From the UHGV virus genome UHGV-0073938: a stretch of DNA of 16,304 bases. The stretch is one strand, 5' to 3'. This stretch comes from a virus. Each line of letters opens with the position of its first letter. Position 1 is the first letter of the stretch. This document shows, one piece after another, positions 330 to 16,304 of this stretch. The translations under genes were made by a program, and so were the position numbers. The notes under the pieces were generated by a model. It was not told the origin of the DNA and made no database searches. It saw only the letters and a program-made list of their open reading frames with translations.

Positions 330-378
330 CATGTCACGAGTAGATTATGCATGATGAATTTGATGGGGTTTGAATACT

Positions 379-404: not shown

Positions 405-408
405 GCAT

Positions 409-440
409 GGTACTATTACCACAACGGTAACTATTACCAC
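409..440 (+). repeat. tandem direct repeat of ACTATTACCAC in the terS 5' region
   Basis: ACTATTACCAC occurs exactly at 412-422 and 430-440, each preceded by GGT(A), ending 8 nt before the ATG at 448. Confidence 0.5.
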
Positions 441-447
441 GGTGGTT

Positions 448-1044
448 ATGATGCCTGCTGAACCTAAAACCTATAAACGCAAATCAACGCAATTTAAGCC
501 ACTAACAGCAATGCAGGAGGCTTATTGCCAGTCATACATCAAAACGCCTGAAAACCAGACTCAGGCAGCGATTAACGCAGGATTCTCCCCAAATACAGCG
601 GCAGTTAAAGCTAGTGTCATGATGCGCGATGAACGCATTCAAAAACGGATTGCCGAGTTGATGGAGGAGCGCAACAAACGAATGCGCGTCAGTGCTGATT
701 ACGTTCTCATGCGCCTGGTGGAGATCGACCAGATGGACGTGATCGACATCCTCAACGACGATGGGAGCCTTAAACCAATCCGTGAGTGGCCGAAAATCTG
801 GCGCACTACGCTTAGTGGCTTTGATCTGTCATCGACCATCATGAACATGAACGAGGATTCGATAGAGACAATCCTCAAAAAAATTAAATGGCCTGACAAG
901 GTGAAGAACCTTGAGCTGATTGGTAAGCATGTTGATGTCAACGCGTTCAAAGAACGTCTGGATGTTAATGTGAATGTGACAATTGCTGATCGCATAGCAG
1001 CAGCCAGGAAGCGACTCAAAGAACGTCAGGATGGTAATCAGTGA
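448..1044 (+). CDS. terminase small subunit
   Basis: The ORF-track start at 370 is TTG and would read through the 379-404 hairpin; the first in-frame ATG is 448. The N-terminal region (QEAYCQSYIKTPENQTQAAINAGFS...AAVKASVMMRDERIQKRIAEL) looks like the helix-turn-helix DNA-binding region typical of small terminase subunits. Stop overlaps the next start (ATGA at 1041-1044). Confidence 0.75.
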   Translation: MMPAEPKTYKRKSTQFKPLTAMQEAYCQSYIKTPENQTQAAINAGFSPNTAAVKASVMMRDERIQKRIAELMEERNKRMRVSADYVLMRLVEIDQMDVIDILNDDGSLKPIREWPKIWRTTLSGFDLSSTIMNMNEDSIETILKKIKWPDKVKNLELIGKHVDVNAFKERLDVNVNVTIADRIAAARKRLKERQDGNQ

Positions 1045-2510
1045 CAGATACAGCGTTATCTCCTGAAGAGCAGTTGATCGAGGATATTGCAGGGTTCACT
1101 CACGATCCGCTTGGCTATGCCCTCTATGCGTTCCCGTGGGGGGAAGAGGGTACTGAACTGGCACATGCCACCGGTCCACGTCAGTGGCAGGCCGATGCGT
1201 TCCGAGAGATACGTGATCACCTGCAGAATCCAGAGACGCGCTATCAGCCGCTTATGCTGGCACGCGCTTCTGGTCACGGTATTGGTAAATCCGCATTCAT
1301 CTCAATGCTGATCAACTGGGGCATGTCCACTTGCGAGGATTGTAAGGTCGTGGTGACCGCCAACACCGACAACCAGCTACGAACGAAGACCTGGCCGGAA
1401 ATTATCAAGTGGTCGAACCTTGCTATCACGAAAGACTGGTTTACCTGTACCGCTACTGCGATGTACAGCAATGATCCTGGGCACGACAAGCGGTGGCGAG
1501 CTGACGCAATCCCCTGGTCTGAGCACAACACTGAGGCATTCGCCGGACTACACAACGAGCGCAAACGCATCATCGTGGTATTCGATGAAGCGTCGAACAT
1601 TGCGGATCTGGTGTGGGAAGTTGCTGAGGGTGCGCTTACGGACGAAGACACTGAGATTATCTGGGTGGCGTTCGGAAACCCGACGCGTAATACCGGACGT
1701 TTCCGTGAATGTTTCCGCAAGTATAAACACCGCTGGAAAACTGCGCAGATTGACAGTCGGACGGTGGAAGGTACCAACAAACAGCAGTTGCAGAAATGGG
1801 TTGATGACTACGGGGAAGACAGCGACTTCGTTAAAATCCGTGTGCGTGGCATATTCCCTGATGCATCTGAATTGCAGTTTATCCCTACCGGTCTTACTGA
1901 CGAGGCAATGAAACGGGTGGTAACCGCTGCGCAGGTTGCACATGCTCCGGTGATAATCGGCGTTGACCCGGCATACTCCGGCGTTGATGACGCTGTGATA
2001 TACCTGCGGCAGGGGCTACACAGTAAGGTGCTGTGGACTGGCAACAAGACCACTGACGATCTGATAATGGCGAAGCGTATCGCTGACTTTGAAGACCAGT
2101 ACCAGGCTGACGCAGTGTTCATCGACTTCGGTTACGGAACTGGTCTGAAGTCAATCGGTGACGGCTGGGGTCGTACATGGCAACTTGTTCCGTTTGGTGG
2201 TGCGTCTACTGACCCGCAGATGCTCAACAAGCGTGGGGAGATGTTCAACTCATGCAAGACATGGCTGAGGCTGGGCGGCATGCTTGATGACCAGGAAACA
2301 GCGGACGACCTGTCGGCGGCAGAGTACAAAGTTCGAGTGGACGGTAAAATCGTTATCGAACCGAAGGAAGATATCAAGGAGCGGCTTGGGCGTTCTCCTG
2401 GTAAAGGCGATGCGCTACTGCTGACGTTTGCGTTCCCGGTAGCCAAGAAAACTAATGACCCACGGCAGCAGCAGGGCAGGGCTATAACAGACTATGACCC
2501 ATTTGAATGA
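1041..2510 (+). CDS. terminase large subunit
   Basis: 489 aa, translationally coupled to the preceding gene. Walker A-like P-loop (ARASGHGIGKS) near the N-terminus, followed by acidic motifs consistent with ATPase and nuclease domains. Confidence 0.85.
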   Translation: MTDTALSPEEQLIEDIAGFTHDPLGYALYAFPWGEEGTELAHATGPRQWQADAFREIRDHLQNPETRYQPLMLARASGHGIGKSAFISMLINWGMSTCEDCKVVVTANTDNQLRTKTWPEIIKWSNLAITKDWFTCTATAMYSNDPGHDKRWRADAIPWSEHNTEAFAGLHNERKRIIVVFDEASNIADLVWEVAEGALTDEDTEIIWVAFGNPTRNTGRFRECFRKYKHRWKTAQIDSRTVEGTNKQQLQKWVDDYGEDSDFVKIRVRGIFPDASELQFIPTGLTDEAMKRVVTAAQVAHAPVIIGVDPAYSGVDDAVIYLRQGLHSKVLWTGNKTTDDLIMAKRIADFEDQYQADAVFIDFGYGTGLKSIGDGWGRTWQLVPFGGASTDPQMLNKRGEMFNSCKTWLRLGGMLDDQETADDLSAAEYKVRVDGKIVIEPKEDIKERLGRSPGKGDALLLTFAFPVAKKTNDPRQQQGRAITDYDPFE

Positions 2511-2513
2511 TTT

Positions 2514-3362
2514 TTACTTTTGTGTTTTTGATTTTCTTTGATAGGTGGAATTTAAATCACCATTTATATTTACTAGAGGATTATTCAATAATGTACTGAT
2601 TTCTGGATTGTTAATTCCAGTAACGCCAAGTTTCTTTACGGACTCATTAAAGTCTTGTAATGATTTTAGACCTACAAGCCCATTAGCAATTGTATTATTT
2701 GTTGCCAAAGGAATGTTTTTCTTATAGGACTCATATTCGTTTTTTAAATTTTTGTGAGTTTTTTCTAGATTTTCTAGTTTAGATGTTGTTTCATCAATAA
2801 CCTTAGATAATTCTAAAATACGAGCTTGTGCTGCGCGCAGTTCTGTCTCCCTCTCTTTCAATTCAGATGTGAGTTGTCCCATTCTGTCTTTTGAAAGAAT
2901 TATTTCCTCTTTCATGTCTTGAATGTTTTTTTCAGCGCCTGTTTTTACTTTTTCGTAAGTAATGTCTTTTTTAGCCAGCAATCTCTGTAGCCGTGTTTCA
3001 CGTTGTATTTTTCTTGCCTTCCGGTGGTTTTCGATTGAGTCATTATTATCAAGAGGCTTTGCTTGCCATACGTTAATGATATTGTTTACCCATGGTAATA
3101 GGCAGCAGATAGTAATTACAGATAAGCATGGATAAAACATAACAGTTTTCCATGTGCTGTTATCTGAGATGTATGAAATTTTATCTATTATATTTGATTT
3201 GCTAAAAAATAGATAAAGAAGTGATTTCCAGTTGAAGGCGCACCAGGACATAACAAAAGCACCAAGCACAGGGTTTTTAGCTCGATGCACGGCAGTATTG
3301 GCAGTAGATGAAAACAGCTCTTTGAACGATTCGAACATACTAATTACCTTAAAGTTTTTCAT
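2514..3362 (-). CDS. hypothetical membrane-anchored coiled-coil protein (cargo gene; candidate exclusion/defence effector)
   Basis: Minus-strand ORF in a low-GC (about 30%) segment, versus about 50% in flanking phage genes. The track start at 3434 is TTG and overlaps a terminator. ATG at 3362 has AAGG 7 nt upstream; ATG at 3338 is an alternative start. Two hydrophobic segments (VLGAFVMSWCAFNWKSLLYLFF; VMFYPCLSVITICCLLPWV) precede about 100 aa of charged heptad-like sequence (KERETELRAAQARILELSKVIDETTSKLENLEK). Confidence 0.6.
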   Translation of the reverse strand: MKNFKVISMFESFKELFSSTANTAVHRAKNPVLGAFVMSWCAFNWKSLLYLFFSKSNIIDKISYISDNSTWKTVMFYPCLSVITICCLLPWVNNIINVWQAKPLDNNDSIENHRKARKIQRETRLQRLLAKKDITYEKVKTGAEKNIQDMKEEIILSKDRMGQLTSELKERETELRAAQARILELSKVIDETTSKLENLEKTHKNLKNEYESYKKNIPLATNNTIANGLVGLKSLQDFNESVKKLGVTGINNPEISTLLNNPLVNINGDLNSTYQRKSKTQK

Positions 3363-3363
3363 G

Positions 3364-3392
3364 ATTATACCTTTAAGGTAATTTGTGGTCAT
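3364..3392 (-). promoter_or_regulatory. possible sigma70-type promoter for the cargo gene
   Basis: Minus strand reads ATGACC (3392-3387), a 17 nt spacer, then TATAAT (3369-3364). A start here would favour the ATG at 3338, which has AAGG 8 nt upstream. Sequence-only guess. Confidence 0.3.
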
Positions 3393-3397
3393 CAGGC

Positions 3398-3421
3398 AAA
3401 AAATGCCCGGACGAACCGGGC
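3398..3421 (-). terminator. intrinsic terminator (minus strand)
   Basis: Minus strand reads GCCCGG-TTCGT-CCGGGC followed by ATTTTTT (hairpin 3405-3421, T-run 3398-3403). Confidence 0.5.
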
Positions 3422-3499
3422 GAACTGGAAGCAATGAGTTATGCCTTCCGTGGCTGTACTGGTTTACAGCATGAAGTCATCGCAATGGCGTCCTGCTGT

Positions 3500-3541
3500 A
3501 AAAAGGGCGGTGATAGTCCTTCAAGGGAAACCATCACCGCC
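3500..3541 (-). terminator. terminator-like hairpin downstream of the tRNA (minus strand)
   Basis: 9 bp stem (3506-3514 with 3533-3541) and an 18 nt loop, followed on the minus strand by CTTTTT (3500-3505). The loop is large for a typical terminator. Confidence 0.35.
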
Positions 3542-3584
3542 AAGCACCTGGAACTTCTGGCATCACGGTCCTTAGGCGTGATTC

Positions 3585-3661
3585 TGGCGTGGCATGCAGT
3601 ATTCGAACCTGCGACCAACCGCTTAGAAGGCGGTTGCTCTGTCCAACTGAGCTAATGCCAC
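3585..3661 (-). tRNA. tRNA-Arg (anticodon UCU)
   Basis: Minus strand folds as a cloverleaf by hand: acceptor GTGGCAT/ATGCCAC (7 bp), D-stem GCTC/GAGC, anticodon stem ACCGC/GCGGT with loop CTTCTAA (anticodon TCT), T-loop TTCGAAT, discriminator G and encoded CCA. The fifth T-stem pair is a G-A mismatch. Confidence 0.85.
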
Positions 3662-3960
3662 AACGCTGAGAGCACTTAGCCTGTTAAGGCGCCACACTTT
3701 GTCGCGGCTCCATAAATGCTCTCATCGTTGTACCCTCGTCTCTTCCGAGGCGTCACACCGAATCGCCGGGATGGTGAATCCCCGTGCGCGGAATAAAACC
3801 GCTCGACTTGCACATTCCGGCTACCTGGTTCGTTTGCCCGAGCAAGGGAGGGTGCCCCTTAAACGTATCCAGACCGCTATCGGCGCATGTGCCATACACC
3901 GTACTGCTCAAAATAAAAGCTCACCCCACCTGTTCAATTTAACGACAAGCCAGTCAGGTT
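3662..3960. other. GC-rich ORF-less segment; possible structured RNA, tRNA leader or recombination scar
   Basis: About 300 nt with no convincing ORF on either strand. The only track ORF (3699-3962) lacks an RBS and reads like noncoding translation. Several short GC-rich inverted repeats. No second cloverleaf found by hand. Confidence 0.3.
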
Positions 3961-4075
3961 AATAACCGGAATGAACTCTTTGCTTACCTGAAAGGTAATA
4001 ATTAGTGCGTTAAATGTCAAGTATCTACGATAAATAAATCATATGTGGTTAAATTGGTAATAATTTAATTGCGTA

Positions 4076-4087
4076 CGGAGTCATTGA
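4076..4087 (+). repeat. 12 nt direct repeat CGGAGTCATTGA, copy 1 (start context of the small ORF)
   Basis: Exact match to 4297-4308; both copies end 1 nt before an ATG. Confidence 0.4.
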
Positions 4088-4088
4088 T

Positions 4089-4295
4089 ATGTGCATGGGT
4101 AGCTCACCATCAGTGCCTGCAACACCAGAAGTTCAGGCAGCACCACAGGAGCAGGATGCCGCCGTTGTTGATGCCCGCGACGAAGAAACTCGTCGCCGTC
4201 GCGCTGCTGCTGGTCGTAGTTCTACGCTGCTTACCGGTTCTCAGGGCGACACATCAACCGCTAATACCAGCGGTAAAACGCTGCTTGGTCAGTAA
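4089..4295 (+). CDS. hypothetical small protein, 68 aa, predicted disordered and charged
   Basis: ATG at 4089 with GGAG 8 nt upstream. Codon usage resembles the neighbouring phage genes. Start context CGGAGTCATTGA is repeated at the portal start. Confidence 0.45.
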   Translation: MCMGSSPSVPATPEVQAAPQEQDAAVVDARDEETRRRRAAAGRSSTLLTGSQGDTSTANTSGKTLLGQ

Positions 4296-4296
4296 C

Positions 4297-4308
4297 CGGA
4301 GTCATTGA
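4297..4308 (+). repeat. 12 nt direct repeat CGGAGTCATTGA, copy 2 (start context of the portal gene)
   Basis: Exact match to 4076-4087. Confidence 0.4.
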
Positions 4309-4309
4309 A

Positions 4310-5989
4310 ATGGCGGAAACAACTAAAGAGCGATTGAACAAACAGTTCGCACAACTTGAAAGCGAGCGTCAGTCGTTCGAGCCGCACTGGCGCGAGTTGA
4401 GTGATTACATCAACCCGCGTGGTTCCCGCTTTCTGACTTCTGAGGTCAACCGTAACGATCGACGCAATACACGTATTATTGATTCGACCGGGACTATGGC
4501 GGCGCGCACTCTCGCCAGCGGCATGATGTCAGGCATCACAAGCCCCGCGCGTCCGTGGTTTCGCCTGGCTACGCCAGATCCTGAAATGATGGATTATGGC
4601 CCTGTTAAGTTGTGGCTTGAGGCGGTGCAGAACCGCATGAACGATATGTTCAATAATTCGAATCTCTATCAGTCGCTGCCGCAGTTATACGGAAGCCTCG
4701 GCACATACAGCACTGGTGCAATGGCAGTGCTGGAGGATGACGAGGACATCATTCGCACAATGCCATTCCCGATAGGCAGTTACTACCTGGCTAACTCACC
4801 TCGTGGCAGTGTGGACACCTGTTTTCGCAAGTTCTCTATGACTGTTCGTCAGCTTGTTCAGGAGTTCGGGCTAAATAACGTCAGCGAATCCGTAAAAAGC
4901 ATGTGGGAAAGCGGAACCTACGAGAAGTGGATTGAAGTGATGCATTCGGTTTACCCGAACATTGACCGCGATACATCGAAGCTGGATAGCAAGAACAAGC
5001 CATTCAAATCGGTTTATTACGAGGTTGGTGGCGATAACGACAAGTTGTTGCGTGAGTCCGGATTCGATGAGTTTCCAATTATGGCTCCGCGCTGGGAAGT
5101 TAACGGCGAAGATGTTTATGGATCATCATGCCCGGGTATGCTGGCGCTTGGACCTGTTAAGGCATTGCAGCTTCTCCAGAAGCGCAAGTCGCAGTTGATT
5201 GATAAAGCCACCAATCCGCCGATGGTTGCTCCGACTTCCCTCAAGAATCAGCGTGCCTCCCTTCTTCCTGGCGACATCACGTATATCGATCAGATTACTG
5301 GTCAGGATGGTTTCAGGCCTGCTTATCTGGTTAACCCCAGTACAGCAGATTTGGTGGCAGACATTCAGGACACCCGTCAAATCATTAACAGCGCCTACTT
5401 TGTCGATCTGTTCATGATGTTGCAGAACATCAATACCCGCTCGATGCCTGTTGAAGCGGTGATCGAAATGAAAGAAGAAAAACTTCTGATGTTGGGGCCG
5501 GTTCTGGAGCGTCTGAACGACGAATGTCTTAATCCTCTCATTGATCGCGCTTTCTCGATGATGGTGCGTAAAAACATGCTGCCGCCACCGCCTGACGCGA
5601 TGGAAGGTATGCCCCTGAAGGTCGAATACATTTCCGTCATGGCTCAGGCGCAGAAGTCTATCGGCCTGTCCAGTCTGGCGTCTACGGTCAACTTCATTGG
5701 TCAACTTGCGCAAGCGAAACCAGAAGCTCTCGACAAACTCAACGTTGATCAGGCGATCGATGCATTCGCTGATATGTCCGGAGTGTCTCCAACCGTCATT
5801 GTTCCGCAGGAACAGGTTGAGCAGGCTCGCCAGCAACGGGCACAGCAACAACAGCAGCAACAAATGATGGCGATGGGGATGGCGGCGGCACAGGGTGCCA
5901 AGACGCTAAGCGAAGCTAAAACTTCGGATCCGAGTGTTTTGTCAGCTATGGCGAATGCAGTTAGTGGTCAGGGTGGGCAATCACAATGA
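4310..5989 (+). CDS. portal protein
   Basis: 559 aa ORF as the first large gene after the terminase pair and before scaffold-like and capsid genes. GGAG-type RBS. Gln-rich C-terminal tail. Stop overlaps the next start (ATGA at 5986-5989). Call is by size and position; no diagnostic motif verified. Confidence 0.75.
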   Translation: MAETTKERLNKQFAQLESERQSFEPHWRELSDYINPRGSRFLTSEVNRNDRRNTRIIDSTGTMAARTLASGMMSGITSPARPWFRLATPDPEMMDYGPVKLWLEAVQNRMNDMFNNSNLYQSLPQLYGSLGTYSTGAMAVLEDDEDIIRTMPFPIGSYYLANSPRGSVDTCFRKFSMTVRQLVQEFGLNNVSESVKSMWESGTYEKWIEVMHSVYPNIDRDTSKLDSKNKPFKSVYYEVGGDNDKLLRESGFDEFPIMAPRWEVNGEDVYGSSCPGMLALGPVKALQLLQKRKSQLIDKATNPPMVAPTSLKNQRASLLPGDITYIDQITGQDGFRPAYLVNPSTADLVADIQDTRQIINSAYFVDLFMMLQNINTRSMPVEAVIEMKEEKLLMLGPVLERLNDECLNPLIDRAFSMMVRKNMLPPPPDAMEGMPLKVEYISVMAQAQKSIGLSSLASTVNFIGQLAQAKPEALDKLNVDQAIDAFADMSGVSPTVIVPQEQVEQARQQRAQQQQQQQMMAMGMAAAQGAKTLSEAKTSDPSVLSAMANAVSGQGGQSQ

Positions 5990-6282
5990 CAGATTACGAA
6001 GACGATCAACTGAAAGAAGAAAACGCCCGTAAGCAACGTGACATGGCACAGCGTGAAATTGATGACATTTGCTTTGTCATGAGCAGTGAACAGGGGCGTC
6101 GCGTTGTCTGGTCGGTGCTGGAGAAAGGCCGTGTGTTTTCCGCTATCTCACCGATGGACGCTATGGCAATGGCATTTAATGAGGGGCAACGCAATCTGGC
6201 GCTGGAACTGTTTCAGCGCGTTATGGCGCATTGCCCTGAACAGTATTTGAAGATGGCCAAAGAGGCCAGTGAACAGGAGTGA
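5986..6282 (+). CDS. hypothetical head-module protein, 98 aa
   Basis: Translationally coupled to the portal gene; sits between portal and scaffold-like genes. Confidence 0.55.
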   Translation: MTDYEDDQLKEENARKQRDMAQREIDDICFVMSSEQGRRVVWSVLEKGRVFSAISPMDAMAMAFNEGQRNLALELFQRVMAHCPEQYLKMAKEASEQE

Positions 6283-6284
6283 TC

Positions 6285-6980
6285 ATGAATTTATTTGAGC
6301 GTTTGCTGTATCGCCGTCTTTGCAATGAGCAACCAGTCGATGGTGGAGCAGCTCCGGCTGCGTCAGAACCGTCAGCGCCTGCAGGTGATAACCCTGCTCC
6401 AGTTGGTGATCCATCACAACAGGAAGGTGATAAGCCACAACCTGTTGCTGATGGCGATAAACCTGCTGATGACAAAAAGCCTGAAAACGATAAGCAGGAT
6501 GAAAAAAAGGACGGCGATAAACCAGAGGGTGCGCCAGAAAAGTACGAGTTTCAGGCTGCCGAAGGCGTAGAGCTGGATACAGAAGCGTTGAAGGAATTCG
6601 AGCCGGTGGCGCGAGAACTAAACCTGACCAACGAGCAAGCGCAAAAGCTGGTTGATGCTTATCCGAAGATTCTGGCAGGTGTTCAGCAGCGCCAGGCAGA
6701 AGCCTGGCAGAAAACAACCGAGCAGTGGGCTGCGGATGTAAAAGCCGACAAAGAAATCGGTGGCGACAAGTTGATTTCTAACCTTAGCGCCGCACAGCGT
6801 GCGCTTGACCAGTTCGGGACACCTGAACTCAAAGAATATCTGAACACCACCGGGCTGGGTAATCACCCTGATCTGGTCAAAACGTTCGTGAAAATCGGAA
6901 AGGCGATGTCTGAAGATGGCATGGTCACCGGTGGTAATGAAGGCCAGCGTAGTGCGGCCGAAGTGCTCTATGGCAAATAA
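6285..6980 (+). CDS. scaffolding-like protein (acidic, Pro/Ala/Asp-rich N-terminal region, helical C-terminal region)
   Basis: Track start at 6279 is GTG; the ATG at 6285 is preferred. Composition and position (after portal, directly before the capsid gene) fit a scaffold. Ends with SAAEVLYGK. Confidence 0.55.
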   Translation: MNLFERLLYRRLCNEQPVDGGAAPAASEPSAPAGDNPAPVGDPSQQEGDKPQPVADGDKPADDKKPENDKQDEKKDGDKPEGAPEKYEFQAAEGVELDTEALKEFEPVARELNLTNEQAQKLVDAYPKILAGVQQRQAEAWQKTTEQWAADVKADKEIGGDKLISNLSAAQRALDQFGTPELKEYLNTTGLGNHPDLVKTFVKIGKAMSEDGMVTGGNEGQRSAAEVLYGK

Positions 6981-6994
6981 GAGAGGAAATGACA

Positions 6995-7981
6995 ATGGCT
7001 GTTAAAGGCTTAACTGCGCTAACGCTGGCTGACTGGGGTAAGCGCGTCGATCCAAACGGGAAAGTCGATAAGATTATCGAGCTTCTCGGTCAAACTAACC
7101 CGATCCTTCAGGATATGCCTTTTGTCGAAGGGAACCTTCCTACCGGACACCGAACCACCATTCGTTCTGGTTTACCTTCAGCTACCTGGCGTTTGCTGAA
7201 CTATGGCGTACAGCCAAGCAAATCAACCACAGTGCAGGTAACCGATTCCGTTGGCATGCTGGAAACCTATGCGGAAGTCGATAAGTCACTGGCTGATCTG
7301 AACGGCAATACCGCCGAATTCCGCCTTTCTGAAGACCGCGCATTTATTGAAGCGATGAATCAGCAGATGGCGCAGACGCTGTTTTATGGTGATTCCAGCG
7401 TTAACCCTCAGCAGTTTATGGGACTGTCCTCCCGCTATTCCAGCCTGTCTGCGGGTAATGCTCAGAACATCATTGATGCTGGTGGCACGGGTACAGATAA
7501 CACCTCAATCTGGTTAGTGGTGTGGGGCGAAAACACCGTGCATGGCATCTTCCCGAAAGGGCAGAAGGCTGGCATCCAGATGGAAGATAAAGGCCAGGTG
7601 ACACTGGAAGATGCTAATGGCGGCAAGTACGAAGGCTATCGCACCCATTACAAATGGGATAACGGACTTGCTCTGCGTGACTGGCGTTATGTTGTTCGCA
7701 TTGCAAACATCGATGTCAGCAATCTTTCAGAACCATCCTCTGCCGCAAATATTGCGAAGTTGATGGTTAAAGCACTACATCGCATTCCAAACCGTGGCAT
7801 GGGCCGCCCGGTGTTCTACATGAACCGCACTGTAGGCCAGGCTCTTGATCTGCAGTCTCTGGAGAAAACATCTCTGGCTATCAGCGTAAAAGAGACAGAA
7901 GGCGAGTGGTGGACTTCATTCCGTGGTGTACCAATCCGTGAAACTGATGCGCTTCTGGAAACAGAAGCCCGCGTGGTGTAA
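6995..7981 (+). CDS. major capsid protein
   Basis: About 330 aa ORF immediately after the scaffold-like gene. AGAGG at 6982-6986 is 8 nt from the ATG at 6995; the in-frame ATG at 6989 is too close to the RBS. Confidence 0.75.
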   Translation: MAVKGLTALTLADWGKRVDPNGKVDKIIELLGQTNPILQDMPFVEGNLPTGHRTTIRSGLPSATWRLLNYGVQPSKSTTVQVTDSVGMLETYAEVDKSLADLNGNTAEFRLSEDRAFIEAMNQQMAQTLFYGDSSVNPQQFMGLSSRYSSLSAGNAQNIIDAGGTGTDNTSIWLVVWGENTVHGIFPKGQKAGIQMEDKGQVTLEDANGGKYEGYRTHYKWDNGLALRDWRYVVRIANIDVSNLSEPSSAANIAKLMVKALHRIPNRGMGRPVFYMNRTVGQALDLQSLEKTSLAISVKETEGEWWTSFRGVPIRETDALLETEARVV

Positions 7982-7997
7982 CGCCTGTTATTAACCT

Positions 7998-8017
7998 GTG
8001 GGTCGTAACAGACCCAC
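7998..8017 (+). promoter_or_regulatory. intergenic stem-loop after the capsid gene (possible attenuator or processing site)
   Basis: GTGGGTC (7998-8004), loop GTAACA, GACCCAC (8011-8017). No T-run follows; the next RBS GGAG is at 8022-8025. Confidence 0.3.
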
Positions 8018-8032
8018 TAATGGAGAAAGAAG

Positions 8033-8470
8033 ATGATCACCGACAAACTGTTGATGTTCTCCGAAGCACAGGCGGTAACTGATACCGCGGCTTCTACTGA
8101 CGTAATCGATCTCGGTCCAATTGACGGAAAACGTCGTGATATCGGCGTTGGTTACCCGCTTGAGTTTTGGGCGCTGGTTAACACAGCCGCCGCGGCAAGC
8201 GGTGATGCAACTGTAAACATCCAGTTGCAGACGAGTGAAAATAACAGCTCATGGACCACTATTTATGATAGTGGCGCACTGGCAAAGACCGCCCTGACAG
8301 CAGGTAAACGAGTTGTTTCTGCAAAGGTGCCTGCCGGTGTTCAGCGATATCTGCGTGTTAACTACTCCGTCGCAACTGGCCCACTAACGGCTGGCGAATT
8401 CACTGCTGGTATCAGTCTTGATGTTGATGCCAATACGCCGTATCCGATCCGCTCAAAAGTAACTGGTTAA
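8033..8470 (+). CDS. hypothetical head-associated protein, 145 aa (possible capsid decoration/accessory protein)
   Basis: GGAG RBS 8 nt upstream of the ATG. Gly/Ala/Thr-rich composition. Position directly after the major capsid gene. Confidence 0.55.
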   Translation: MITDKLLMFSEAQAVTDTAASTDVIDLGPIDGKRRDIGVGYPLEFWALVNTAAAASGDATVNIQLQTSENNSSWTTIYDSGALAKTALTAGKRVVSAKVPAGVQRYLRVNYSVATGPLTAGEFTAGISLDVDANTPYPIRSKVTG

Positions 8471-8480
8471 GGTGATATCG

Positions 8481-8816
8481 ATGTCAGGTGAGAAACCAAG
8501 ATACCTCGTTCTGCGCCTCTCTCATATCCATAACACTCTGTGGCCGGAGGGGGCAGAAATCGAATACGAAGGTGAGCCTGGTAGCGCACTGGAACCTGTT
8601 AACGATGCAGCCAGACAGGCAAAAGCAAAAGTTGCAGGAAAGGTGTCAATGGCAGCAACCAGCACCAAAATCATCAACGATGTGTCAGATGATGGTGAAC
8701 TGGATAAGCTCCGTGAAGAGTACGAATTGCTCTTTAACGAGAAGCCACACCATAACGCTAAAGCCGAAACGCTCCGCGAGAAGATCGCAGATAAGCGTAA
8801 AGAACTAGGCGTGTAA
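8481..8816 (+). CDS. hypothetical protein, about 112 aa
   Basis: Track start at 8472 is GTG; the ATG at 8481 has AAGGTG 7 nt upstream. Followed by a strong terminator-like hairpin. Confidence 0.55.
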   Translation: MSGEKPRYLVLRLSHIHNTLWPEGAEIEYEGEPGSALEPVNDAARQAKAKVAGKVSMAATSTKIINDVSDDGELDKLREEYELLFNEKPHHNAKAETLREKIADKRKELGV

Positions 8817-8833
8817 GCCTCGCGAATCCGACA

Positions 8834-8854
8834 AGGGGCTTCGGCCCCTTTATT
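8834..8854 (+). terminator. intrinsic terminator inside the structural gene block
   Basis: AGGGGC (8834-8839), loop TTCG, GCCCCT (8844-8849), followed by TTTATT. Confidence 0.6.
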
Positions 8855-8866
8855 GCAGGAGTGTAT

Positions 8867-9190
8867 ATGGAACTCGTAAACCTCAAAACCGGCACTGACA
8901 GCTACCAGGATGAGAGCGGAGAAACCAGAACTCGCGATGAATACCCGTGGGGGCTGTGCATCACTCTTAATAACGACACATTGAATAAGCTGAAGGCGCA
9001 ACCTCAGGGCGTCGGAACAGAAGTGATGATAACTGCAAAAGCTGTTATTCGAGGCCTGTCTGCCAGAGAAACTGACGATGGTGTTAATCGCAGCGCCGAT
9101 CTGCAGATCACTGATATGGCGATCGCTCCTGTTTCCGGTGATGTAGAAAAATCAGCGGCTGAAACCCTCTACGGTAACGGGGGTGAGTGA
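8867..9190 (+). CDS. hypothetical protein, about 108 aa
   Basis: ATG at 8867 with AGGAG (8856-8860) upstream; the track start at 8861 is GTG. C-terminus SAAETLYGNGGE resembles the scaffold-like protein C-terminus. Confidence 0.55.
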   Translation: MELVNLKTGTDSYQDESGETRTRDEYPWGLCITLNNDTLNKLKAQPQGVGTEVMITAKAVIRGLSARETDDGVNRSADLQITDMAIAPVSGDVEKSAAETLYGNGGE

Positions 9191-9633
9191 TGGCCTCTGT
9201 AGTAGAGATCTGTAATCGTGCGCTGTCCAATATTGGCAACAGCCGCAGCATTAACAGCCTGACGGAAGCCAGCAAGGAAGCAGGGGAATGTTCGCTGCAC
9301 TTTGAGGCCTGCCGTGATGCTGTGCTTTCTGATTTTGACTGGAACTTTGCTACCAAACGCGTGGCGCTTGCAGATACGAACAATCCACCGCCTGACTGGG
9401 AATATGCGTACCAGTACCCGTCCGATTGTCTGCGCATTACTGAAATTATGCTTCCTGGTGTACGCAATCCAACAGCAGCAATGCGCGTTCAGTACGAAGT
9501 TGGTGCAGACACCAACGGAACAGGAAAGTTGATCTACACAGACCAGCCGCAGGTTAATGCTGAACAGGATATTTTATCTCCCCAGCCCAGCCGCAGGCAT
9601 GGCTCAAGTATGTCTCTCGCGTTTCAGATGTGA
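9190..9633 (+). CDS. tail tubular protein A-like (gp11-like), N-terminal part; gene appears interrupted by a frameshift
   Basis: ATG at 9190 overlaps the previous stop (TGATG). It lies directly upstream of the 823 aa gp12-sized gene. The last about 17 residues (PQPSRRHGSSMSLAFQM) look like out-of-frame translation. Similarity to T7 gp11 is from synteny and rough recollection only. Confidence 0.5.
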   Translation: MASVVEICNRALSNIGNSRSINSLTEASKEAGECSLHFEACRDAVLSDFDWNFATKRVALADTNNPPPDWEYAYQYPSDCLRITEIMLPGVRNPTAAMRVQYEVGADTNGTGKLIYTDQPQVNAEQDILSPQPSRRHGSSMSLAFQM

Positions 9634-9839
9634 ACATGTTTGATGCCATTTTTATGGAGGCGTTGGCCTGGCGTCTTGCGGCAGCTATTAACATGGCGCT
9701 GACTGGGAATGCAGACCTCGGTACGTTTGCCCTCAATATGTACAATCGCGTGATTCTTAGTGCTGGCTCGCATAGCCAGAATGAATCACAGGAACCACAG
9801 CCACCGGTTGATGAGTTTACCATTGCGAGGTTGTCCTGA
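9630..9839 (+). CDS. C-terminal continuation of the gp11-like gene in another frame
   Basis: This frame is open from 9564 and reads plausible protein (AWLKYVSRVSDVNMFDAIFMEALAWRLAAAINMAL...). No convincing RBS for an independent start. Stop overlaps the next ATG at 9839. Confidence 0.45.
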   Translation: MNMFDAIFMEALAWRLAAAINMALTGNADLGTFALNMYNRVILSAGSHSQNESQEPQPPVDEFTIARLS

Positions 9840-12310
9840 TGGCTATCAGTTGGATCCAGCCCAGCTTTGCCGGTGGTGAGATTGGACCGTCGTTGTACGG
9901 GCGTATTGACATGGCGAAGTACCAGGTGGCATTGCGCAAGTGCGATAACTTTATCGTGCGGCAGTATGGCGGCGTTGAGAATCGACCTGGTACGCGTTTT
10001 GTCGGTGCCGCCAAATACCCAAATCGGAAATGCCGCCTGATCCCGTTCCAGTTCTCGACGGTTCAGACCTATGCTCTGGAGTTCGGACACCAGTACATGC
10101 GCGTTATCAAAGATGGTGCGTTGGTGCTGAACAGCAGCAATGTTATTTATGAAATTGCCACGCCATATACTGAAGCCGATCTGTTCCGAATTAAATTCAC
10201 GCAAAGCGCCGACGTGCTTACGCTGGTTCATCCGGCATACCCGCCGAAAGAGTTGCGTCGCTATGCGCATGACAACTGGCAACTGGTTGATGTGGTAACG
10301 AAGAACGGGCCATTTGAAGATATCAATATTGACGAGTCAGTGACGGTTTATGCCAGCGCCAGCACCGGGACAATTACGTTAACGGCAAGCGCCTCTATTT
10401 TTGGCGCGGAGCAGGTAGGCAAATTGTTCTATCTGGAACAGCCTGCAGTGGATTCTGTGCCGGTATGGGAAACCAGTAAGAGTACGTCGATTGGCGATAT
10501 TCGCCGTGCAGACAGTAACTACTATCGCGCCGTTACAGCAGGCAAAACAGGTACTTTGCGCCCTTCGCATACAGAAGGCACATCATGGGATGGCTGGGGC
10601 GGATCCGGTGATGATGATACTGGCATTGAGTGGGAGTATCTGCACAGTGGTTTTGGCATTGCCAGTATAACTGCTGTAAATGGCACTACTGCAACTGCTG
10701 AGGTGATTTCCTATATCCCTTCGCAGGTCGTTGGCGAGGATAATGCCAGCTATAAATGGGCTAAATATGCCTGGAACAGTGTTAATGGTTATCCTGGCAC
10801 TGTTGTTTATTATCAACAGCGTCTTTACTTCGCCGCATCGACTGCGTTCCCTCAGACTATCTGGGCCAGCCGTACCGGGGATTATAAGGATTTTGGCAAA
10901 AGCAATCCTACGCAGGATGACGACAGAATTATCTACACCTATGCCGGGCGTCAGGTTAATGAGATCCGCCACCTGATTGATGTTGGTTCTCTGGTGGCGC
11001 TGACTTCCGGAGGTGAGTACGTCATCACCGGCGACCAGAACAAAGTGTTAACCCCATCATCATTTGCATTCAGCTCTCAGGGATCAAATGGCTCGAGCAA
11101 TGTCCCACCAATTGCCGTGGCGAATATTGCTCTGTTCGTCCAGGAGAAAGGCAGTGTTGTCCGTGATCTGGCCTACTCATTCGATGTTGACGGCTATCAG
11201 GGGAACGACCTTACTATCCTTGCCAATCATCTTTTTCAGAAGCACAGCATTGTTGACTGGTGCTTCTCGATTGTCCCTTACTCCAGTGCCTTCTGCATTC
11301 GTGATGACGGTAAATTACTGGTGATGACCTATTTGCGTGATCAGCAGGTTTTTGCATGGGCACCACAATCCAGTACCGGAAAATATGAAAGCACATGCAG
11401 TATCAGCGAAGGCAATGAAGATGCGGTGTATTTCGTCGTTAACAGAACCGTTAACGGGCAAACAGTGAGATACATCGAGAGACTGTCCAGCCGTTTATTT
11501 ACCAGCGATGAAGATGCTTTCTTTGTTGATTCTGGCCTTAGCTATGATGGAAGAAATACGTCTGACAGAACGATGACCATCACTGGTGGTTCTGGCGAAT
11601 GGGATTACCGCGCGGAATATACAATCAGTGTTTCTGGTGGTGCGTACTTCACCAGTAGTGATGTCGGTGCGCAACTACAGTTCCCTTATACCGGAACTGC
11701 TCCTGATACTGGCGATGAAGTGTCAAAAGAATTACGTTGCGACATTATTTCTGTAACCAGCAATACCGCTGTAGTGGTTCGTGCTAACAGGAACGTCCCG
11801 CCATCCCTCAGGAATGTGGCCACCACGAACTGGCAGATGGCGCGCCGGACATTTGGAGGCCTGTCTCATCTTGAAGGCCAGACCGTAAACATTCTCTCTG
11901 ATGCGAACGTGGAACCACAGAAAGTGGTTTCCGGAGGTGCCGTCACGCTGGAATCTCCGGGGGCTGTAGTGCACATCGGCCTGCCAATAACTGCTGAATT
12001 CGAAACACTGGATATCAACATTAACGGACAGGAAACGCTGCTGGACAAAAAACAGGTGATCCCCTCCGTTACTCTGGTTGTGAATGCCAGTCGCGGCATC
12101 TGGGCGACTACGCCCGGCGGTAAATGGTACGAATATCCACAGCGTGAATTCGAGTTCTACGATGATCCTGTTGATGATGCTACCGGAAAAGTAGAAGTGA
12201 AACTGGACAGTAACTGGGGCAAAAACGGGCGTGTAAAAATCCGTCAGCTTGACCCGTTGCCGCTGTCTGTTCTTGCCGTTATTCCTCGCCTTACTGTTGG
12301 GGGATTCTGA
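9839..12310 (+). CDS. large tail protein, tail tubular protein B-like (gp12-like), 823 aa
   Basis: Size and position match gp12 in the T7-type order. Coupled to flanking genes by overlapping stop/start at both ends. Confidence 0.55.
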   Translation: MAISWIQPSFAGGEIGPSLYGRIDMAKYQVALRKCDNFIVRQYGGVENRPGTRFVGAAKYPNRKCRLIPFQFSTVQTYALEFGHQYMRVIKDGALVLNSSNVIYEIATPYTEADLFRIKFTQSADVLTLVHPAYPPKELRRYAHDNWQLVDVVTKNGPFEDINIDESVTVYASASTGTITLTASASIFGAEQVGKLFYLEQPAVDSVPVWETSKSTSIGDIRRADSNYYRAVTAGKTGTLRPSHTEGTSWDGWGGSGDDDTGIEWEYLHSGFGIASITAVNGTTATAEVISYIPSQVVGEDNASYKWAKYAWNSVNGYPGTVVYYQQRLYFAASTAFPQTIWASRTGDYKDFGKSNPTQDDDRIIYTYAGRQVNEIRHLIDVGSLVALTSGGEYVITGDQNKVLTPSSFAFSSQGSNGSSNVPPIAVANIALFVQEKGSVVRDLAYSFDVDGYQGNDLTILANHLFQKHSIVDWCFSIVPYSSAFCIRDDGKLLVMTYLRDQQVFAWAPQSSTGKYESTCSISEGNEDAVYFVVNRTVNGQTVRYIERLSSRLFTSDEDAFFVDSGLSYDGRNTSDRTMTITGGSGEWDYRAEYTISVSGGAYFTSSDVGAQLQFPYTGTAPDTGDEVSKELRCDIISVTSNTAVVVRANRNVPPSLRNVATTNWQMARRTFGGLSHLEGQTVNILSDANVEPQKVVSGGAVTLESPGAVVHIGLPITAEFETLDININGQETLLDKKQVIPSVTLVVNASRGIWATTPGGKWYEYPQREFEFYDDPVDDATGKVEVKLDSNWGKNGRVKIRQLDPLPLSVLAVIPRLTVGGF

Positions 12311-12774
12311 TGATCGATGTTCAAATTATTCCCGCTACCGAAGAGCATCTTCAGATGATTTTGCCGGATGTTCGTCAGGCTGATATTGACGAACTGTATG
12401 CGGTATCGCTGATGACTACCGAAGATGCGCTGCGCGTTGGTCTTCGCACTGCGACTATGGCCTGGTCAGGATTTGCGAACGGAGAACTGGTAACCATGTT
12501 TGGCGTATCTCCGGCGTCAATGATCGGTGGCAATGGTACGCCCTGGCTGGTCGGAACCAGCCGTATCGAAAAATATCAGAAGACATTTCTTCGCCACTGC
12601 CGCCCTGTATTGCAGCAGATGCTGGCAGTTTATCCGCGCCTGGAAAACTATGTCGACGAGCGAAACCATGTTGCCAAAGCATGGCTGCACTGGCTTGGAT
12701 TCAGGCTTGAAGAAGCCGCGCCTTATGGTGCTCTTGGTCTTAATTTCCACAGATTTCACATGGAGAGAAAATAA
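12310..12774 (+). CDS. hypothetical virion assembly protein (gp13-like position), 154 aa
   Basis: Overlapping stop/start at both ends (TGATG at 12308-12312, TAATG at 12772-12776). Call is by synteny only. Confidence 0.5.
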   Translation: MIDVQIIPATEEHLQMILPDVRQADIDELYAVSLMTTEDALRVGLRTATMAWSGFANGELVTMFGVSPASMIGGNGTPWLVGTSRIEKYQKTFLRHCRPVLQQMLAVYPRLENYVDERNHVAKAWLHWLGFRLEEAAPYGALGLNFHRFHMERK

Positions 12775-13349
12775 TGTGCGATCCGGTTATTGCTGGTGGC
12801 GCAATGCTCGCCATGAGTGGCATTCAGGCATACACCCAGTACCAACAGGGAAAGTATGCCTCGAAGGTTGCAGAAGCGAACGCAGATATAGCCACAGCTC
12901 AGGCAAATGATGCAATAAACAGAGGTAACGCTGAAGCTGAGCAACGGCGCAGAGAGACCCGACAGCGGCTTGGGACACAGGCGGCGACAATGGGGGCTAC
13001 CGGCGCTGATTTATCTACAGGTAACGCGCTGGATATATTTGGCGACACTGCCCAGTTTGGCGCTCTTGATTCGCTGACGACGGTGAATAACGCGCAACGC
13101 GAGGCTTACGGTTATCAGGTTCAGGCTGCCAACTATAAAGCAGAAGCCAGTTCAGCCCGTAAACAGGGGAATATGGGAGCAGCAACAACATTGCTCACTG
13201 CGCCTCTGAAGGCATACGGTGCGTACCAGATGTTTGGTGGGACGTGGAGTCCGTTCTCTAAAGGAAGTGCATCTGGTGGTGGAACGCCAATGTTATCTAA
13301 CTCAGGTTTTATGAATTCTGACTCCCGATTCAAAATAGGAGGTTACTGA
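12774..13349 (+). CDS. internal virion protein (gp14-like position), 191 aa
   Basis: Ala/Gly/Gln-rich sequence with a hydrophobic N-terminal segment; size close to T7 gp14. Stop overlaps the next start (TGATG). Confidence 0.5.
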   Translation: MCDPVIAGGAMLAMSGIQAYTQYQQGKYASKVAEANADIATAQANDAINRGNAEAEQRRRETRQRLGTQAATMGATGADLSTGNALDIFGDTAQFGALDSLTTVNNAQREAYGYQVQAANYKAEASSARKQGNMGAATTLLTAPLKAYGAYQMFGGTWSPFSKGSASGGGTPMLSNSGFMNSDSRFKIGGY

Positions 13350-16066
13350 TGCCTGTTGTTCCTACTACATCCGGACGCCAGGTGCAAAGTCGTGGTGTGC
13401 AAACCGGTGGTTTTCAGACCTTCGATGTTCCTCAAGCAGGTCAGGTGCTGGCGAATGTCGCAGATCAGTATGCGGTGGCATATGGTGAAGCCAGGCAGAA
13501 AGCGAATGTTGCATTGTCTCAGGATGCCATCCTTCAGCTTAATCAGCGCAGCAATGAACGTCTTTATAACCCTCAAACCGGTTTTTATGCACAACAAGGC
13601 AAAAATGCGATTGGTAAGGGGCAAGAGTACATATCTGGATTTGATCAGGATGTGGAAGAAATAGCTGCTTCATTGACTGATGAAGCAGCAAGAAATATGT
13701 TTTTGCAACAAGCCAGAACACAGAAAATTCAGTTCAGTACTGGAGTTCTCAGACATGAGATAGGGCAGACAAATGCCTATGAAGATGAGCAATATCAGGC
13801 AACGAGAAAATTATGGATACAAAATGAAGCGGATGCCTGGAATGACCCGCAAACTGCCACTTTAGCCAGAAATTCCAGAATGGTAGCCATTGCCAGATAT
13901 GGAGCTGCCAGGGGATGGTCACAAGAACGCATTCTGGAAGAAATAGAAAGTGATGATCGCAGTGCCACAGAAATGCGGGCGAAGAATTATGCCGCTGCTA
14001 ATCCGGAAGGATGGCTAAATGGTCTGTTTCAGAAAAATGATTCTGTAGGCATGGACATGCGTGCCATACGCCTTGTTGAATCAGGTGATCGTCATTTTAA
14101 TCCTGATGGTAGTATTCTTGAAGGACCGAAAACATCTTCTGGAGAGAGGGCCCAGGGGAAATACCAGTTAATGCCGGGCACAGGGAAAGAACTGGCGGCC
14201 AAGCGTGGCGTTGAATACAACCCTACGGACGAACAACAGCATGAAATGCTTGCCAGTGACTATGTAAATCAACTGTATGGTAAGTACGGCTCAGAAATAT
14301 TGACCGGAGCAGCATATAACTGGGGGATGGGTAACGTGGATAAACTGATCGCCAAAGTCGGTGATCCACGTAAAGGTGAAATATCAGAAGAAGAATTTAT
14401 CCGAAATCTTCCATCAGAAACACAAGGGTGGCTTTCCCGATATAGAAAAAATAAAACTGGAATGGATCCGCTGACTATTTATCAAATAGATAACCTTGCT
14501 AATAGTCAGATAGAAAAGCAAAGGAAGTTAATATTAGAACAGCTTGAGCCAGCTATTAATAACACCATGGCCCAGCTATATAACGGTGAGGTTCCAGATT
14601 ATATACCGGCTCAGGAGACCATCATCAGGGGGTATGGAAAAAACGCAGATAAAATAATCAATCAACTGGATATAGCGATTGATAACGCGAGAATATTCCA
14701 GGCAATTCAGTATTTGCCTCCTTCTCAGCAGCAAGAAGAAATGCAGAAAGTGAAGCCTGAGGTTAACGATCCTCACTATGCGTTAAAACTCGATGCTTAC
14801 GGAAAATTGTCTGCATTGCTTCAGAGATCAAATGAAGCAATTCAGGCGCAACGGGATTCACGCAGATTCAATGAGGCGCTGACAATAGGTGAAAAATTAG
14901 ACCCAAGCAACAAGTCAATGCAGAAAGCTGCTGATTACACAGAAATGGCGCAGAACTTTCGTATTAATGATGCCTCCACTCATGATGGGGTTGTTCGGCT
15001 TGTGGCTCAGACTGGCATAATGCCTTCGCAGGTCATCACGCAGCTTTCAGCAGTATCCCGATCCAGTAATCAGGAAGTGGTTAAAAATGCAGCGGAGCTG
15101 TTTAGTCGGTTATATGAAACAGACAATGCATCTATTGGAAATATGCCGAAGGATATGCAGGGTTTTTATCTGACTGTTAAGCAACTAACTGATTCTGGCA
15201 TGTCTGCTGATGCGGCTATCGAGCAGGCGCAGAACCTGACATACAACCAGACCGATGCTCTTAAAGCTCAATTGGCATCAACGCAGAGTTCAAAAGAGTA
15301 CAAAAATGATCGCAGCAAGGCGATGAATTCTGCTGTCAGCAATATGGCGCAGTGGTTCCGTTGGGATCCTTCTGCGGATGACCAGACGCCGGAAGCAGCT
15401 AGATTCCGTAATGACTATCAGACGCTGTATGACATTAACTACCGCGTTGCTGGTGGTAACGCTGACGTAGCGAAGCAAATGACCAACCAGCAGATAGCCC
15501 GCACCTGGAGTATCAGCGAGGTTAACGGAGATGCACAGTTTATGAAATATGCACCGGAGGCGCTTTATCAATATGGGCCGTCAGGCTGGCAGGCGGCGCA
15601 GTGGAAAGCTGAAAAAGAACGGCTGATGTACGGTGAGCGCAAAGAGATTATAACAACCAGTCCGACGTTGCTTGGGATCACGTCAGGTAATGCTCCTGTA
15701 GTTGAGACAAAAACCCCTGAGAGTCGTATTAATGGAGAATTATTCATAACCCCTGACGTGTTAACACCCCGTAATGGTGATTACGCCATTATGGTAAGAA
15801 CTAAGGATGAAAATGGCATCGATCGGGTCCAGCCGTTTTATAACAAACATGGGCGTCCTATGCGTTGGGAACCATCACTAGCAGATTGGGAACCTTATAA
15901 GAAAATGCAGCAGGAACGGGAGCAGTACGAGCAGGAAGAAATTATGCGTGGACAGGCTATACGAAACTTCAAAGACAAGCATCGCGCTCTGGATGAGCAG
16001 TATCAGCGCCTGCATAACGAACGTATGGACAAATTTAAAGATTACTTTTCGTGGGGATCTAAATAA
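13349..16066 (+). CDS. internal virion/ejection protein with lytic transglycosylase (SLT-like) domain, 905 aa
   Basis: AGGAGG RBS at 13336-13341. Residues about 235-335 (nt about 14050-14350) carry SLT-like motifs: LVESGD (candidate catalytic Glu-Ser), GKYQLMPGTG (GLMQ-like) and AAYNWGMGN (AYNxG-like). Confidence 0.75.
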   Translation: MPVVPTTSGRQVQSRGVQTGGFQTFDVPQAGQVLANVADQYAVAYGEARQKANVALSQDAILQLNQRSNERLYNPQTGFYAQQGKNAIGKGQEYISGFDQDVEEIAASLTDEAARNMFLQQARTQKIQFSTGVLRHEIGQTNAYEDEQYQATRKLWIQNEADAWNDPQTATLARNSRMVAIARYGAARGWSQERILEEIESDDRSATEMRAKNYAAANPEGWLNGLFQKNDSVGMDMRAIRLVESGDRHFNPDGSILEGPKTSSGERAQGKYQLMPGTGKELAAKRGVEYNPTDEQQHEMLASDYVNQLYGKYGSEILTGAAYNWGMGNVDKLIAKVGDPRKGEISEEEFIRNLPSETQGWLSRYRKNKTGMDPLTIYQIDNLANSQIEKQRKLILEQLEPAINNTMAQLYNGEVPDYIPAQETIIRGYGKNADKIINQLDIAIDNARIFQAIQYLPPSQQQEEMQKVKPEVNDPHYALKLDAYGKLSALLQRSNEAIQAQRDSRRFNEALTIGEKLDPSNKSMQKAADYTEMAQNFRINDASTHDGVVRLVAQTGIMPSQVITQLSAVSRSSNQEVVKNAAELFSRLYETDNASIGNMPKDMQGFYLTVKQLTDSGMSADAAIEQAQNLTYNQTDALKAQLASTQSSKEYKNDRSKAMNSAVSNMAQWFRWDPSADDQTPEAARFRNDYQTLYDINYRVAGGNADVAKQMTNQQIARTWSISEVNGDAQFMKYAPEALYQYGPSGWQAAQWKAEKERLMYGERKEIITTSPTLLGITSGNAPVVETKTPESRINGELFITPDVLTPRNGDYAIMVRTKDENGIDRVQPFYNKHGRPMRWEPSLADWEPYKKMQQEREQYEQEEIMRGQAIRNFKDKHRALDEQYQRLHNERMDKFKDYFSWGSK

Positions 16067-16304
16067 TGCCAGTTTATGCACAAGCTGAAGATCTTAATAA
16101 CGGACTGATCCCGTCAGGTAATGTTTTGCCGGAACAAACTGGGTTTGATGTTGCCCTTCCGGAAGGGGCTAATCCTGAGCCATTGCCACCTGAGCCTTCC
16201 GTATGGGGGGCTGCAATGCGACAGAACAATATTCTGGCTGGTTTTTTCCGCCCAGCCAGACAGTTTGAACCGGTCGAAGGTTATAACCCATATGCTGATA
16301 AAAA
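16066..16304 (+). CDS. hypothetical virion protein, 5' partial (runs off the window)
   Basis: ATG at 16066 overlaps the preceding TAA (TAATG). Open frame to the window end (MPVYAQAEDLNNGLIPSGNVLPEQTGFDVALPEG...). Confidence 0.5.
   Translation, partial: MPVYAQAEDLNNGLIPSGNVLPEQTGFDVALPEGANPEPLPPEPSVWGAAMRQNNILAGFFRPARQFEPVEGYNPYADK

Follow-up and report, generated by a model that had tools for sequence, protein, structure and literature searches.

A Degenerate 44-Nucleotide Tandem Copy Splits the Tail Adaptor Gene on a Uetakevirus Prophage Contig, Most Probably as a Sequencing or Assembly Artefact

Introduction

The tail adaptor gene on a 16,304-nt contig of phage origin (hereafter the window, meaning the whole stretch of DNA that was analysed) is called as two overlapping open reading frames (ORFs), and the lesion that separates them is a block of 44 nucleotides: positions 9554–9597 repeat, with many errors, the 44 nt that stand just before them. 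Judged from sequence comparisons, the split is most probably an artefact of the sequencing or assembly of a low-coverage, short-read metagenome, and the gene itself would be a normal one of 606 nt. A sequence-only reading of the window had offered a sequencing or assembly indel as one possible cause of the split; an error origin does emerge as the best explanation, although the event is a 44-nt insertion and not a small indel.

The Interrupted Gene

The two ORFs and the native gene parts that they contain are given below; L036 denotes the reference used throughout, scaffold_11 of ERZ28564893, a 227-kb Escherichia coli scaffold from another assembly.

9190–9633, plus strand: ORF1 as called, with an ATG start, a TGA stop and 147 amino acids (aa); 121 native residues followed by 26 out-of-frame residues
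9630–9839, plus strand: ORF2 as called, with a GTG start, a TGA stop and 69 aa; native residues 133–201, the GTG of Val133 being taken as the start
9190–9553, plus strand: native 5' part of the adaptor gene, codons 1–121 and the first base of codon 122; 100% identity to L036:9396–9759
9598–9839, plus strand: native 3' part of the adaptor gene, from the rest of codon 122 to the stop; identical to L036

ORF1 and ORF2 overlap by 4 nt in the sequence context ATGTGA, and the frame of ORF2 is open from 9564, past a TGA at 9561–9563, just as the sequence-only reading had described. The same reading had seen sensible protein upstream of the nominal start of ORF2, which is borne out from about 9587, where this frame reads QPQAWLKYVSRVSD in agreement with the homologues. 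It had likewise suspected the end of ORF1 to be out of frame, and the last 26 residues of that ORF (VNAEQDILSPQPSRRHGSSMSLAFQM) find no match and are indeed translated out of frame. The native 5' part aligns to phiV10 p14, Tyrion gp12 and a Klebsiella phage homologue, and the native 3' part corresponds to homologue residues 122–201. The uninterrupted ORF of ~606 nt expected of a Uetakevirus p14/gp11 orthologue is not found in the window, where the gene occupies 650 nt and two ORFs, but it reappears once 9554–9597 are removed, and the 606-nt ORF so obtained is 100% identical to L036:9396–10001. The two ORFs are thus a single gene interrupted by a change of frame. When the ORF1 product is submitted to an exact look-up among ~15 billion proteins, it is found on a single contig.

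The 44-Nucleotide Insert

Alignment to phiV10 and Tyrion places one 44-nt insertion in the window, and the inserted nucleotides form a degenerate tandem copy of 9510–9553, identical to it at 31 of 44 positions. The elements of this arrangement are as follows.

9510–9553, plus strand: copy 1, the native 44-nt template, CACCAACGGAACAGGAAAGTTGATCTACACAGACCAGCCGCAGG; encodes TNGTGKLIYTDQPQ
9554–9597, plus strand: copy 2, the inserted 44 nt, TTAATGCTGAACAGGATATTTTATCTCCCCAGCCCAGCCGCAGG; shifts the downstream frame by +2 and is most likely not real DNA
9543–9553, plus strand: left copy of the 11-nt exact direct repeat CCAGCCGCAGG
9587–9597, plus strand: right copy of the 11-nt exact direct repeat CCAGCCGCAGG, the error-free end of copy 2
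9499–9516, no strand assigned: inverted repeat GTTGGTG/CACCAAC, perfect over 7 bp and enclosing a loop of 4 nt; its 3' arm is where the duplicated unit begins

Since 44 equals 3 × 14 + 2, the downstream frame is shifted and two ORFs are called; and because the 11-nt repeat is exact, the placement of the insertion is ambiguous within 9543–9597. The first 6 nt of the insert bear no resemblance to the template (TTAATG versus CACCAA) and the last 11 nt are exact. Compared in register, the two copies match at 31 of 38 positions (P ~4e-13), and independent repeat finding returned two 36-nt copies, 83% identical, at a spacing of 44 nt. Folding of DNA and RNA around the site is insignificant (z = -1.0 and -1.4).

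The frame switch had been sought by the sequence-only reading near the T-run and C-run ATTTTATCTCCCC (9571–9583). This motif lies inside the inserted copy, where the copy's own substitutions turned the native GGAAAGTTGATCTACACAG into GGATATTTTATCTCCCCAG. The lesion is thus a 44-nt degenerate tandem duplication and no indel of 1–2 nt, and a homopolymer slip at the motif was rejected on the same grounds.

At the protein level, copy 2 would place the peptide TGYFISPA where the homologues conserve the motif GTG[KR][LIV]I[YFL]T[DN], which is kept in more than 100 clusters ranging from Escherichia to Serratia and Proteus. TGYFISPA occurs in none of 120 homologue clusters, and all seven changes that copy 2 carries within its alignable 38 nt are non-synonymous; by its sequence, copy 2 would be no functional allele. 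The insert was not found in 50,697 phage records, 5,426 complete E. coli genomes, IMG/VR, GTDB species genomes or JGI metagenomes.

The Underlying Gene: A T7 gp11-Type Tail Adaptor

The gene underneath is the 201-aa tail adaptor ("connector") of T7 gp11 type of a phiV10/epsilon15-like Uetakevirus prophage. This region of the window is ~98% identical to phiV10, TL-2011b, ZX5 and other Uetakevirus phages, as well as to prophages of ~500 complete E. coli genomes. In all these relatives the corresponding gene is one ORF of 606 nt encoding 201 aa (phiV10 p14, TL-2011b gp33, Tyrion gp12), annotated as 'tail protein' or 'phage connector family protein'. The phiV10 p14, TL-2011b gp33 and epsilon15 gp11-type genes occupy the same position as the window gene at ~98% nucleotide identity, and the repaired window product differs from the representative of the phiV10-type cluster at 3 of 201 residues; unlike the window, with its 44 extra nucleotides at 9554–9597, every Uetakevirus relative examined has a single 606-nt gene. 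The homologues fall into more than 100 clusters, each represented by a single protein of 199–202 aa. Two separate conserved genes with the boundaries of the called ORFs, which would have spoken for a genuine gene pair, occur in none of them.

The order of genes is a gp10-like capsid staple gene, the adaptor gene and then a gene for 823 aa, followed by a T7_gp14-family gene and an SLT-domain gene.

9839–12310, plus strand: tail nozzle gene, 823 aa, intact; matches PDB 8ck1_A 'Tail Nozzle' (E 5.7e-217) and PHROG 376

The exact 823-aa nozzle protein is found in 619 blocks of the collection, and among the places shown its neighbour is everywhere an intact 201-aa protein.

For the 201-aa protein, searches gave a match to PHROG 394 (tail protein) and none in Pfam or NCBIfam. 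Against PDB it matches 8ck1_E, a 'Connector Protein', with an E value of 4e-26 alone and 1e-41 when a 25-sequence profile is used; this profile of 25 homologues matches only 8ck1_E and 9efk_T among PDB sequences, and T7 gp11 is not detected. An AlphaFold model of the intact homologue P0001 (pLDDT 85.8) was then compared by Foldseek, and it superimposes on 8ck1_E with a TM score of 0.83 and on T7 gp11 (7box) with a TM score of 0.57–0.59 (E 4e-6, probability 1.00). The T7 gp11 adaptor entries 7ey7 and 6r21 are likewise matched with a probability of 1.00, as is the tail tubular protein A (TTPA) of KP32 (5mu4; E 2e-5, probability 1.00). T7 gp11, KP32 TTPA and the connector of phage Carin-1 (PDB 8ck1_E) thus share a common adaptor fold with the model of the intact homologue, although identity in the structural alignments is 12–15%. 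In addition, the nozzle gene follows immediately on the adaptor gene, in the way that gene 12 follows gene 11 in T7. The label 'gp11-like/tail tubular protein A' therefore holds by predicted fold and by synteny, not by detectable sequence similarity. Going by the descriptions of the 8ck1 and 7box entries, the protein would form the adaptor ring between portal and nozzle in the virion; a full-text literature search for 8CK1 found no paper. One TTPA-like gene ahead of the 823-aa gene had been anticipated from the sequence, and both the fold and the pairing of connector and nozzle in 8ck1 agree with this; the combined length of about 216 aa suggested at the time does not stand, the intact protein having 201 aa (606 nt).

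The Source Contig and a Near-Identical Prophage

By exact look-up of the ORF1 product, the window proved to be the whole of contig ena:ERZ1745601:NODE_583_length_16304_cov_3.24278, with a k-mer coverage of ~3.2. Outside the insert it is identical to L036 at 16,259 of 16,260 positions: there are 0 mismatches over 1–9553 and one over 9598–16304.

12974, plus strand: sole other private difference from L036, T>G (TTGGT>TTGGG), synonymous at Gly67 of the T7-gp14-family gene 12774–13349

This substitution is probably a consensus base-call error of the same GGT>GGG kind as is met in copy 2. The insert differs from its template at 13 of 44 positions and the rest of the contig from L036 at 1 of 16,260 (Fisher P ~8e-34), and a duplication that diverged later is therefore excluded; the extra copy arose in a single step, errors included.

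The remainder of the contig is clean, with 29 scattered private differences relative to seven relatives, all other structural genes at full length, and no indels against the relatives other than the insert and one intergenic base. A generally poor assembly was accordingly rejected as the cause, given the identity to L036 at every position outside the insert but 12974 and this scarcity of indels. Nor is the prophage in decay, the setting in which an inactivating mutation had also been proposed from the sequence: the other genes have reference length, and the identity to an intact prophage is near-complete.

A few features elsewhere in the window deserve mention in their own right. At 3411, on the edge of a variable moron region, the window holds one A that TL-2011b and the E. 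coli 3908 prophage lack; since there is no difference from L036 at this point, it is natural variation and not an error. Between the large terminase gene and the tRNA and portal genes lies a 282-aa gene (2514–3362, minus strand) that belongs to PHROG 4780 (unknown function) and gives only weak matches of coiled-coil type (SMC, LmuB, JetC). E. coli TUM9803, L036 and L037 also carry this gene, and a Gp49-family gene takes its place in TL-2011b, E. coli 3908 and others; the locus is a swappable moron slot. Finally, a tRNA-Arg(TCT) gene at 3585–3661 (minus strand) alone accounts for the 64 Synechococcus phage (S-RIM2) records returned by BLAST of the whole window.

Error Spectrum and Proposed Origin of the Second Copy

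The differences between the copies have a marked spectrum and a direction. Within the alignable 38 nt there are seven, namely three A>C, three G>T and one A>T, with zero transitions; among natural differences between the contig and its relatives 62% are transitions, so that the probability of 0 in 7 is ~0.001. A>C and G>T dominate among the miscalls made in the final 50 bp of MiSeq reads (PMC4381044), and Illumina chemistry most often confuses A with C and G with T (PMC6053417). In reverse-strand orientation, the call reads CCTGCGGCTGG-GCTGGGGAGATAAAA... where the true sequence would be CCTGCGGCTGG-TCTGTGTAGATCAAC...; GCGGCTGG is followed by T>G, and this first error, GGT>GGG, lies 5 nt past a GGC. 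Errors per 11 nt then run 0, 3, 3, 7 in the same direction, up to the garbled end. The first five miscalls all equal one of the two preceding true bases; overall 8 of 13 do so against 5 expected, which is modestly above chance.

Dephasing that is triggered by GGC and inverted repeats and is specific to one direction has been described in Illumina reads (Nakamura 2011, PMC3141275), and GGT>GGG is a systematic Illumina error (Meacham 2011, PMC3295828). Copy 2 shows the published features of such error tails, namely a GGC less than ~10 nt upstream, GGT>GGG, copied preceding bases and rising errors, it being assumed from the SPAdes-style contig name that the platform was Illumina. As in these reports, GGC and an inverted repeat are nearby and the errors rise in one direction only. 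The published errors sit in reads, whereas here they stand in a consensus as a 44-nt pseudo-duplication, which would require an assembler step that we infer.

The proposed origin can be outlined as follows. Copy 2 would derive from an Illumina read of the reverse strand, as the reverse complement of its degraded 3' tail; that read would have passed GCGGCTGG correctly, made its first miscall at GGT>GGG and worsened to its end. This tail would have become a false 44-nt extension of the right-hand sequence, able to survive at ~3x coverage. The assembler would have missed the overlap of the tail with the left-hand sequence, at ~70% identity, and would have placed the two in series; the 44-nt tandem pseudo-duplication so formed would shift the frame by +2 and lead to the calling of two ORFs. 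It is nevertheless important to stress what speaks against an artefact. A contig from a de Bruijn graph needs k-mers across the junction of copy 1 and copy 2, and the junction GCAGG/TTAATG must come from at least one read or from a gap-closing step; we infer this joining step. Moreover, the first 6 nt of the insert match nothing.

Alternative Explanations

An unlikely alternative is that the insertion is real, the product of a one-step, templated and error-prone tandem duplication of 44 nt in a subpopulation of the phage or prophage, for example through template switching at the 9499–9516 hairpin; the adaptor would be inactivated and the prophage defective. The sequence has, after all, been deposited as part of a public contig, and an assembler does not normally follow a path for which the reads supply no k-mers. 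The look-up lists contig NODE_583 of ena:ERZ1745601 for '2 samples', and the insertion would be real if these were independent read sets. The unit also begins exactly at the 3' arm of the perfect 7-bp inverted repeat and ends in the 11-nt exact repeat. Furthermore, the adaptor gene is broken in other assemblies, by nonsense codons, by deletions of 1 nt and 5 nt and by an IS3-family insertion, and its loss in lysogens is therefore tolerated. However, true tandem duplications start exact, and a copy that departs from its template at 13 of 44 positions beside one change in the other 16,260 nt is hard to reconcile with such an event, as are the lack of transitions, the transversions of Illumina miscall type and the error gradient along one read direction. 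No second occurrence turned up in the collections searched, and we know of no bacterial mechanism that yields such a substitution spectrum.

The IS3-family element just mentioned is that of E. coli KTE130 (GCA_000408725.1; L017:3353–4762), which lies in the same adaptor gene, has the end TGAACCGCCCCGGG... and is represented by Ns in its middle. Its GAC target duplication falls at gene nt 353–355, 11 nt from the junction of copy 1 and copy 2, and this closeness is probably a coincidence.

That the insert was imported from elsewhere, as the footprint of a mobile element, a repeat of a diversity-generating type (DGR), an out-of-register gene conversion or a foreign chimera, is very improbable. 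An 11-nt exact direct repeat flanks 33 nt, as in a target duplication, but these 33 nt copy the adjacent sequence and are not element ends; an IS or transposon footprint with an 11-bp target duplication was rejected, the insert being 83% identical to the adjacent 36 nt and holding no element-like sequence. Four of the seven changes are at adenines, but three are at G, and a DGR variable repeat, in which differences would be confined to template adenines, was discarded in view of these G>T changes and of a tandem repeat of only 44 nt. A naturally occurring allele was rejected, as was gene conversion by a diverged homologue: the copy-2 peptide occurs in no homologue among the 120 clusters, and the changes are exclusively non-synonymous transversions. 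As to a chimera, the 22-mer GCAGGTTAATGCTGAACAGGAT across the copy junction has exact matches at L009:7295–7316, L010:945–966 and L011:12579–12600, in Candidatus Frackibacter sp. WG13 and in a pair of metagenome contigs from that organism. None of the matches extends beyond the 22 nt and all three stem from one organism, so that the similarity is judged to be due to chance.

Programmed recoding, either by a -1/+2 ribosomal frameshift within 9564–9633 or by a 44-nt bypass from CAG 9550–9552 to CAG 9594–9596, is extremely improbable. A translational frameshift had been among the causes proposed from the sequence, and the overlap of ORF1 and ORF2 by ATGTGA might seem to invite it, but ATGTGA is ordinary coding sequence in the intact homologues. 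No in-frame X XXY YYZ heptamer exists within 9564–9633, where the zero frame reads GAT ATT TTA TCT CCC CAG CCC AGC, and RNA folding of 9535–9640 is without significance (z = -1.4; 21 of 200 shuffles fold as well). For a bypass, the take-off and landing codons do match (CCG CAG ... CCG CAG), 44 nt apart and inside the exact 11-nt repeat. The coding gap of T4 gene 60, which also lies between identical codons, is 50 nt long against the 44 nt of the window; unlike gene 60, the site in the window lacks a stop codon after the take-off CAG (GTT comes next), a stimulatory hairpin and conservation, and it stands on one low-coverage contig. The arrangement is seen on that contig only, the gene being uninterrupted in identical prophages and in more than 100 homologue clusters; recoding thus appears effectively refuted by absent conservation. 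If the insert were real, the bypass product would span ...IYTDQPQAWLK... and the read-through product ...DQPQVNAEQDILSPQPSR...; that the insert is both real and bypassed from CAG to CAG, with the wild-type 201-aa adaptor still being made, has a vanishingly small probability. If true, a temperate podophage of E. coli would have a coding gap like that of gene 60.

Breaks in the Adaptor Gene in Other Assemblies

Other assemblies show interruptions in the same part of the gene. Two metagenome scaffolds that carry the same 69-aa ORF (L007 and L008) have 10-N gaps at the same spot, and about 10 contigs with a 67-aa C-terminal ORF are broken at reference nt 341–375. N-gaps that end at gene nt 345–361 are seen in L007, L008, L024, L026 and L023. 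At L022:1416–1440 (ena:ERZ28658778 scaffold_5711), six clustered substitutions that include a stop change GGAACAGGAAAGTTG to ACAACAGCAACGTAG, in the stretch that is garbled in copy 2. In L018 (ena:ERZ1714329 contig_2253) the adaptor reads GTGKVDLHRPARAW, with a frameshift that is compensated by another within 8 codons; the genes beside it are broken up as well (Bbp16 is split into 64 + 68 aa), and the indel-rich assembly has a long-read-type look.

These counts have to be read with the way of searching in mind, as look-ups by the 69-aa or 67-aa C-terminal product detect only breaks just upstream of that product. In an unbiased list of homologues, breaks are spread over residues 74–183, and the rare broken forms are each different. 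A hard-to-sequence spot may lie downstream of the 7-bp inverted repeat, a suggestion that is weak and unproven.

Implications

The case offers an example of how one degraded read tail in a metagenome contig of ~3x coverage may produce a pseudo-duplication, and with it a pair of spurious ORFs, and may leave an orphan protein in the databases. Such an artefact can mimic a 'frameshift', a 'pseudogene' or 'recoding', and it was exposed by two checks that can be reused: comparison with a near-identical relative, and the substitution spectrum, with its lack of transitions. For the biology of the phage itself the split carries little weight: the gene is an ordinary, well-conserved podophage adaptor gene in a prophage that is otherwise intact.
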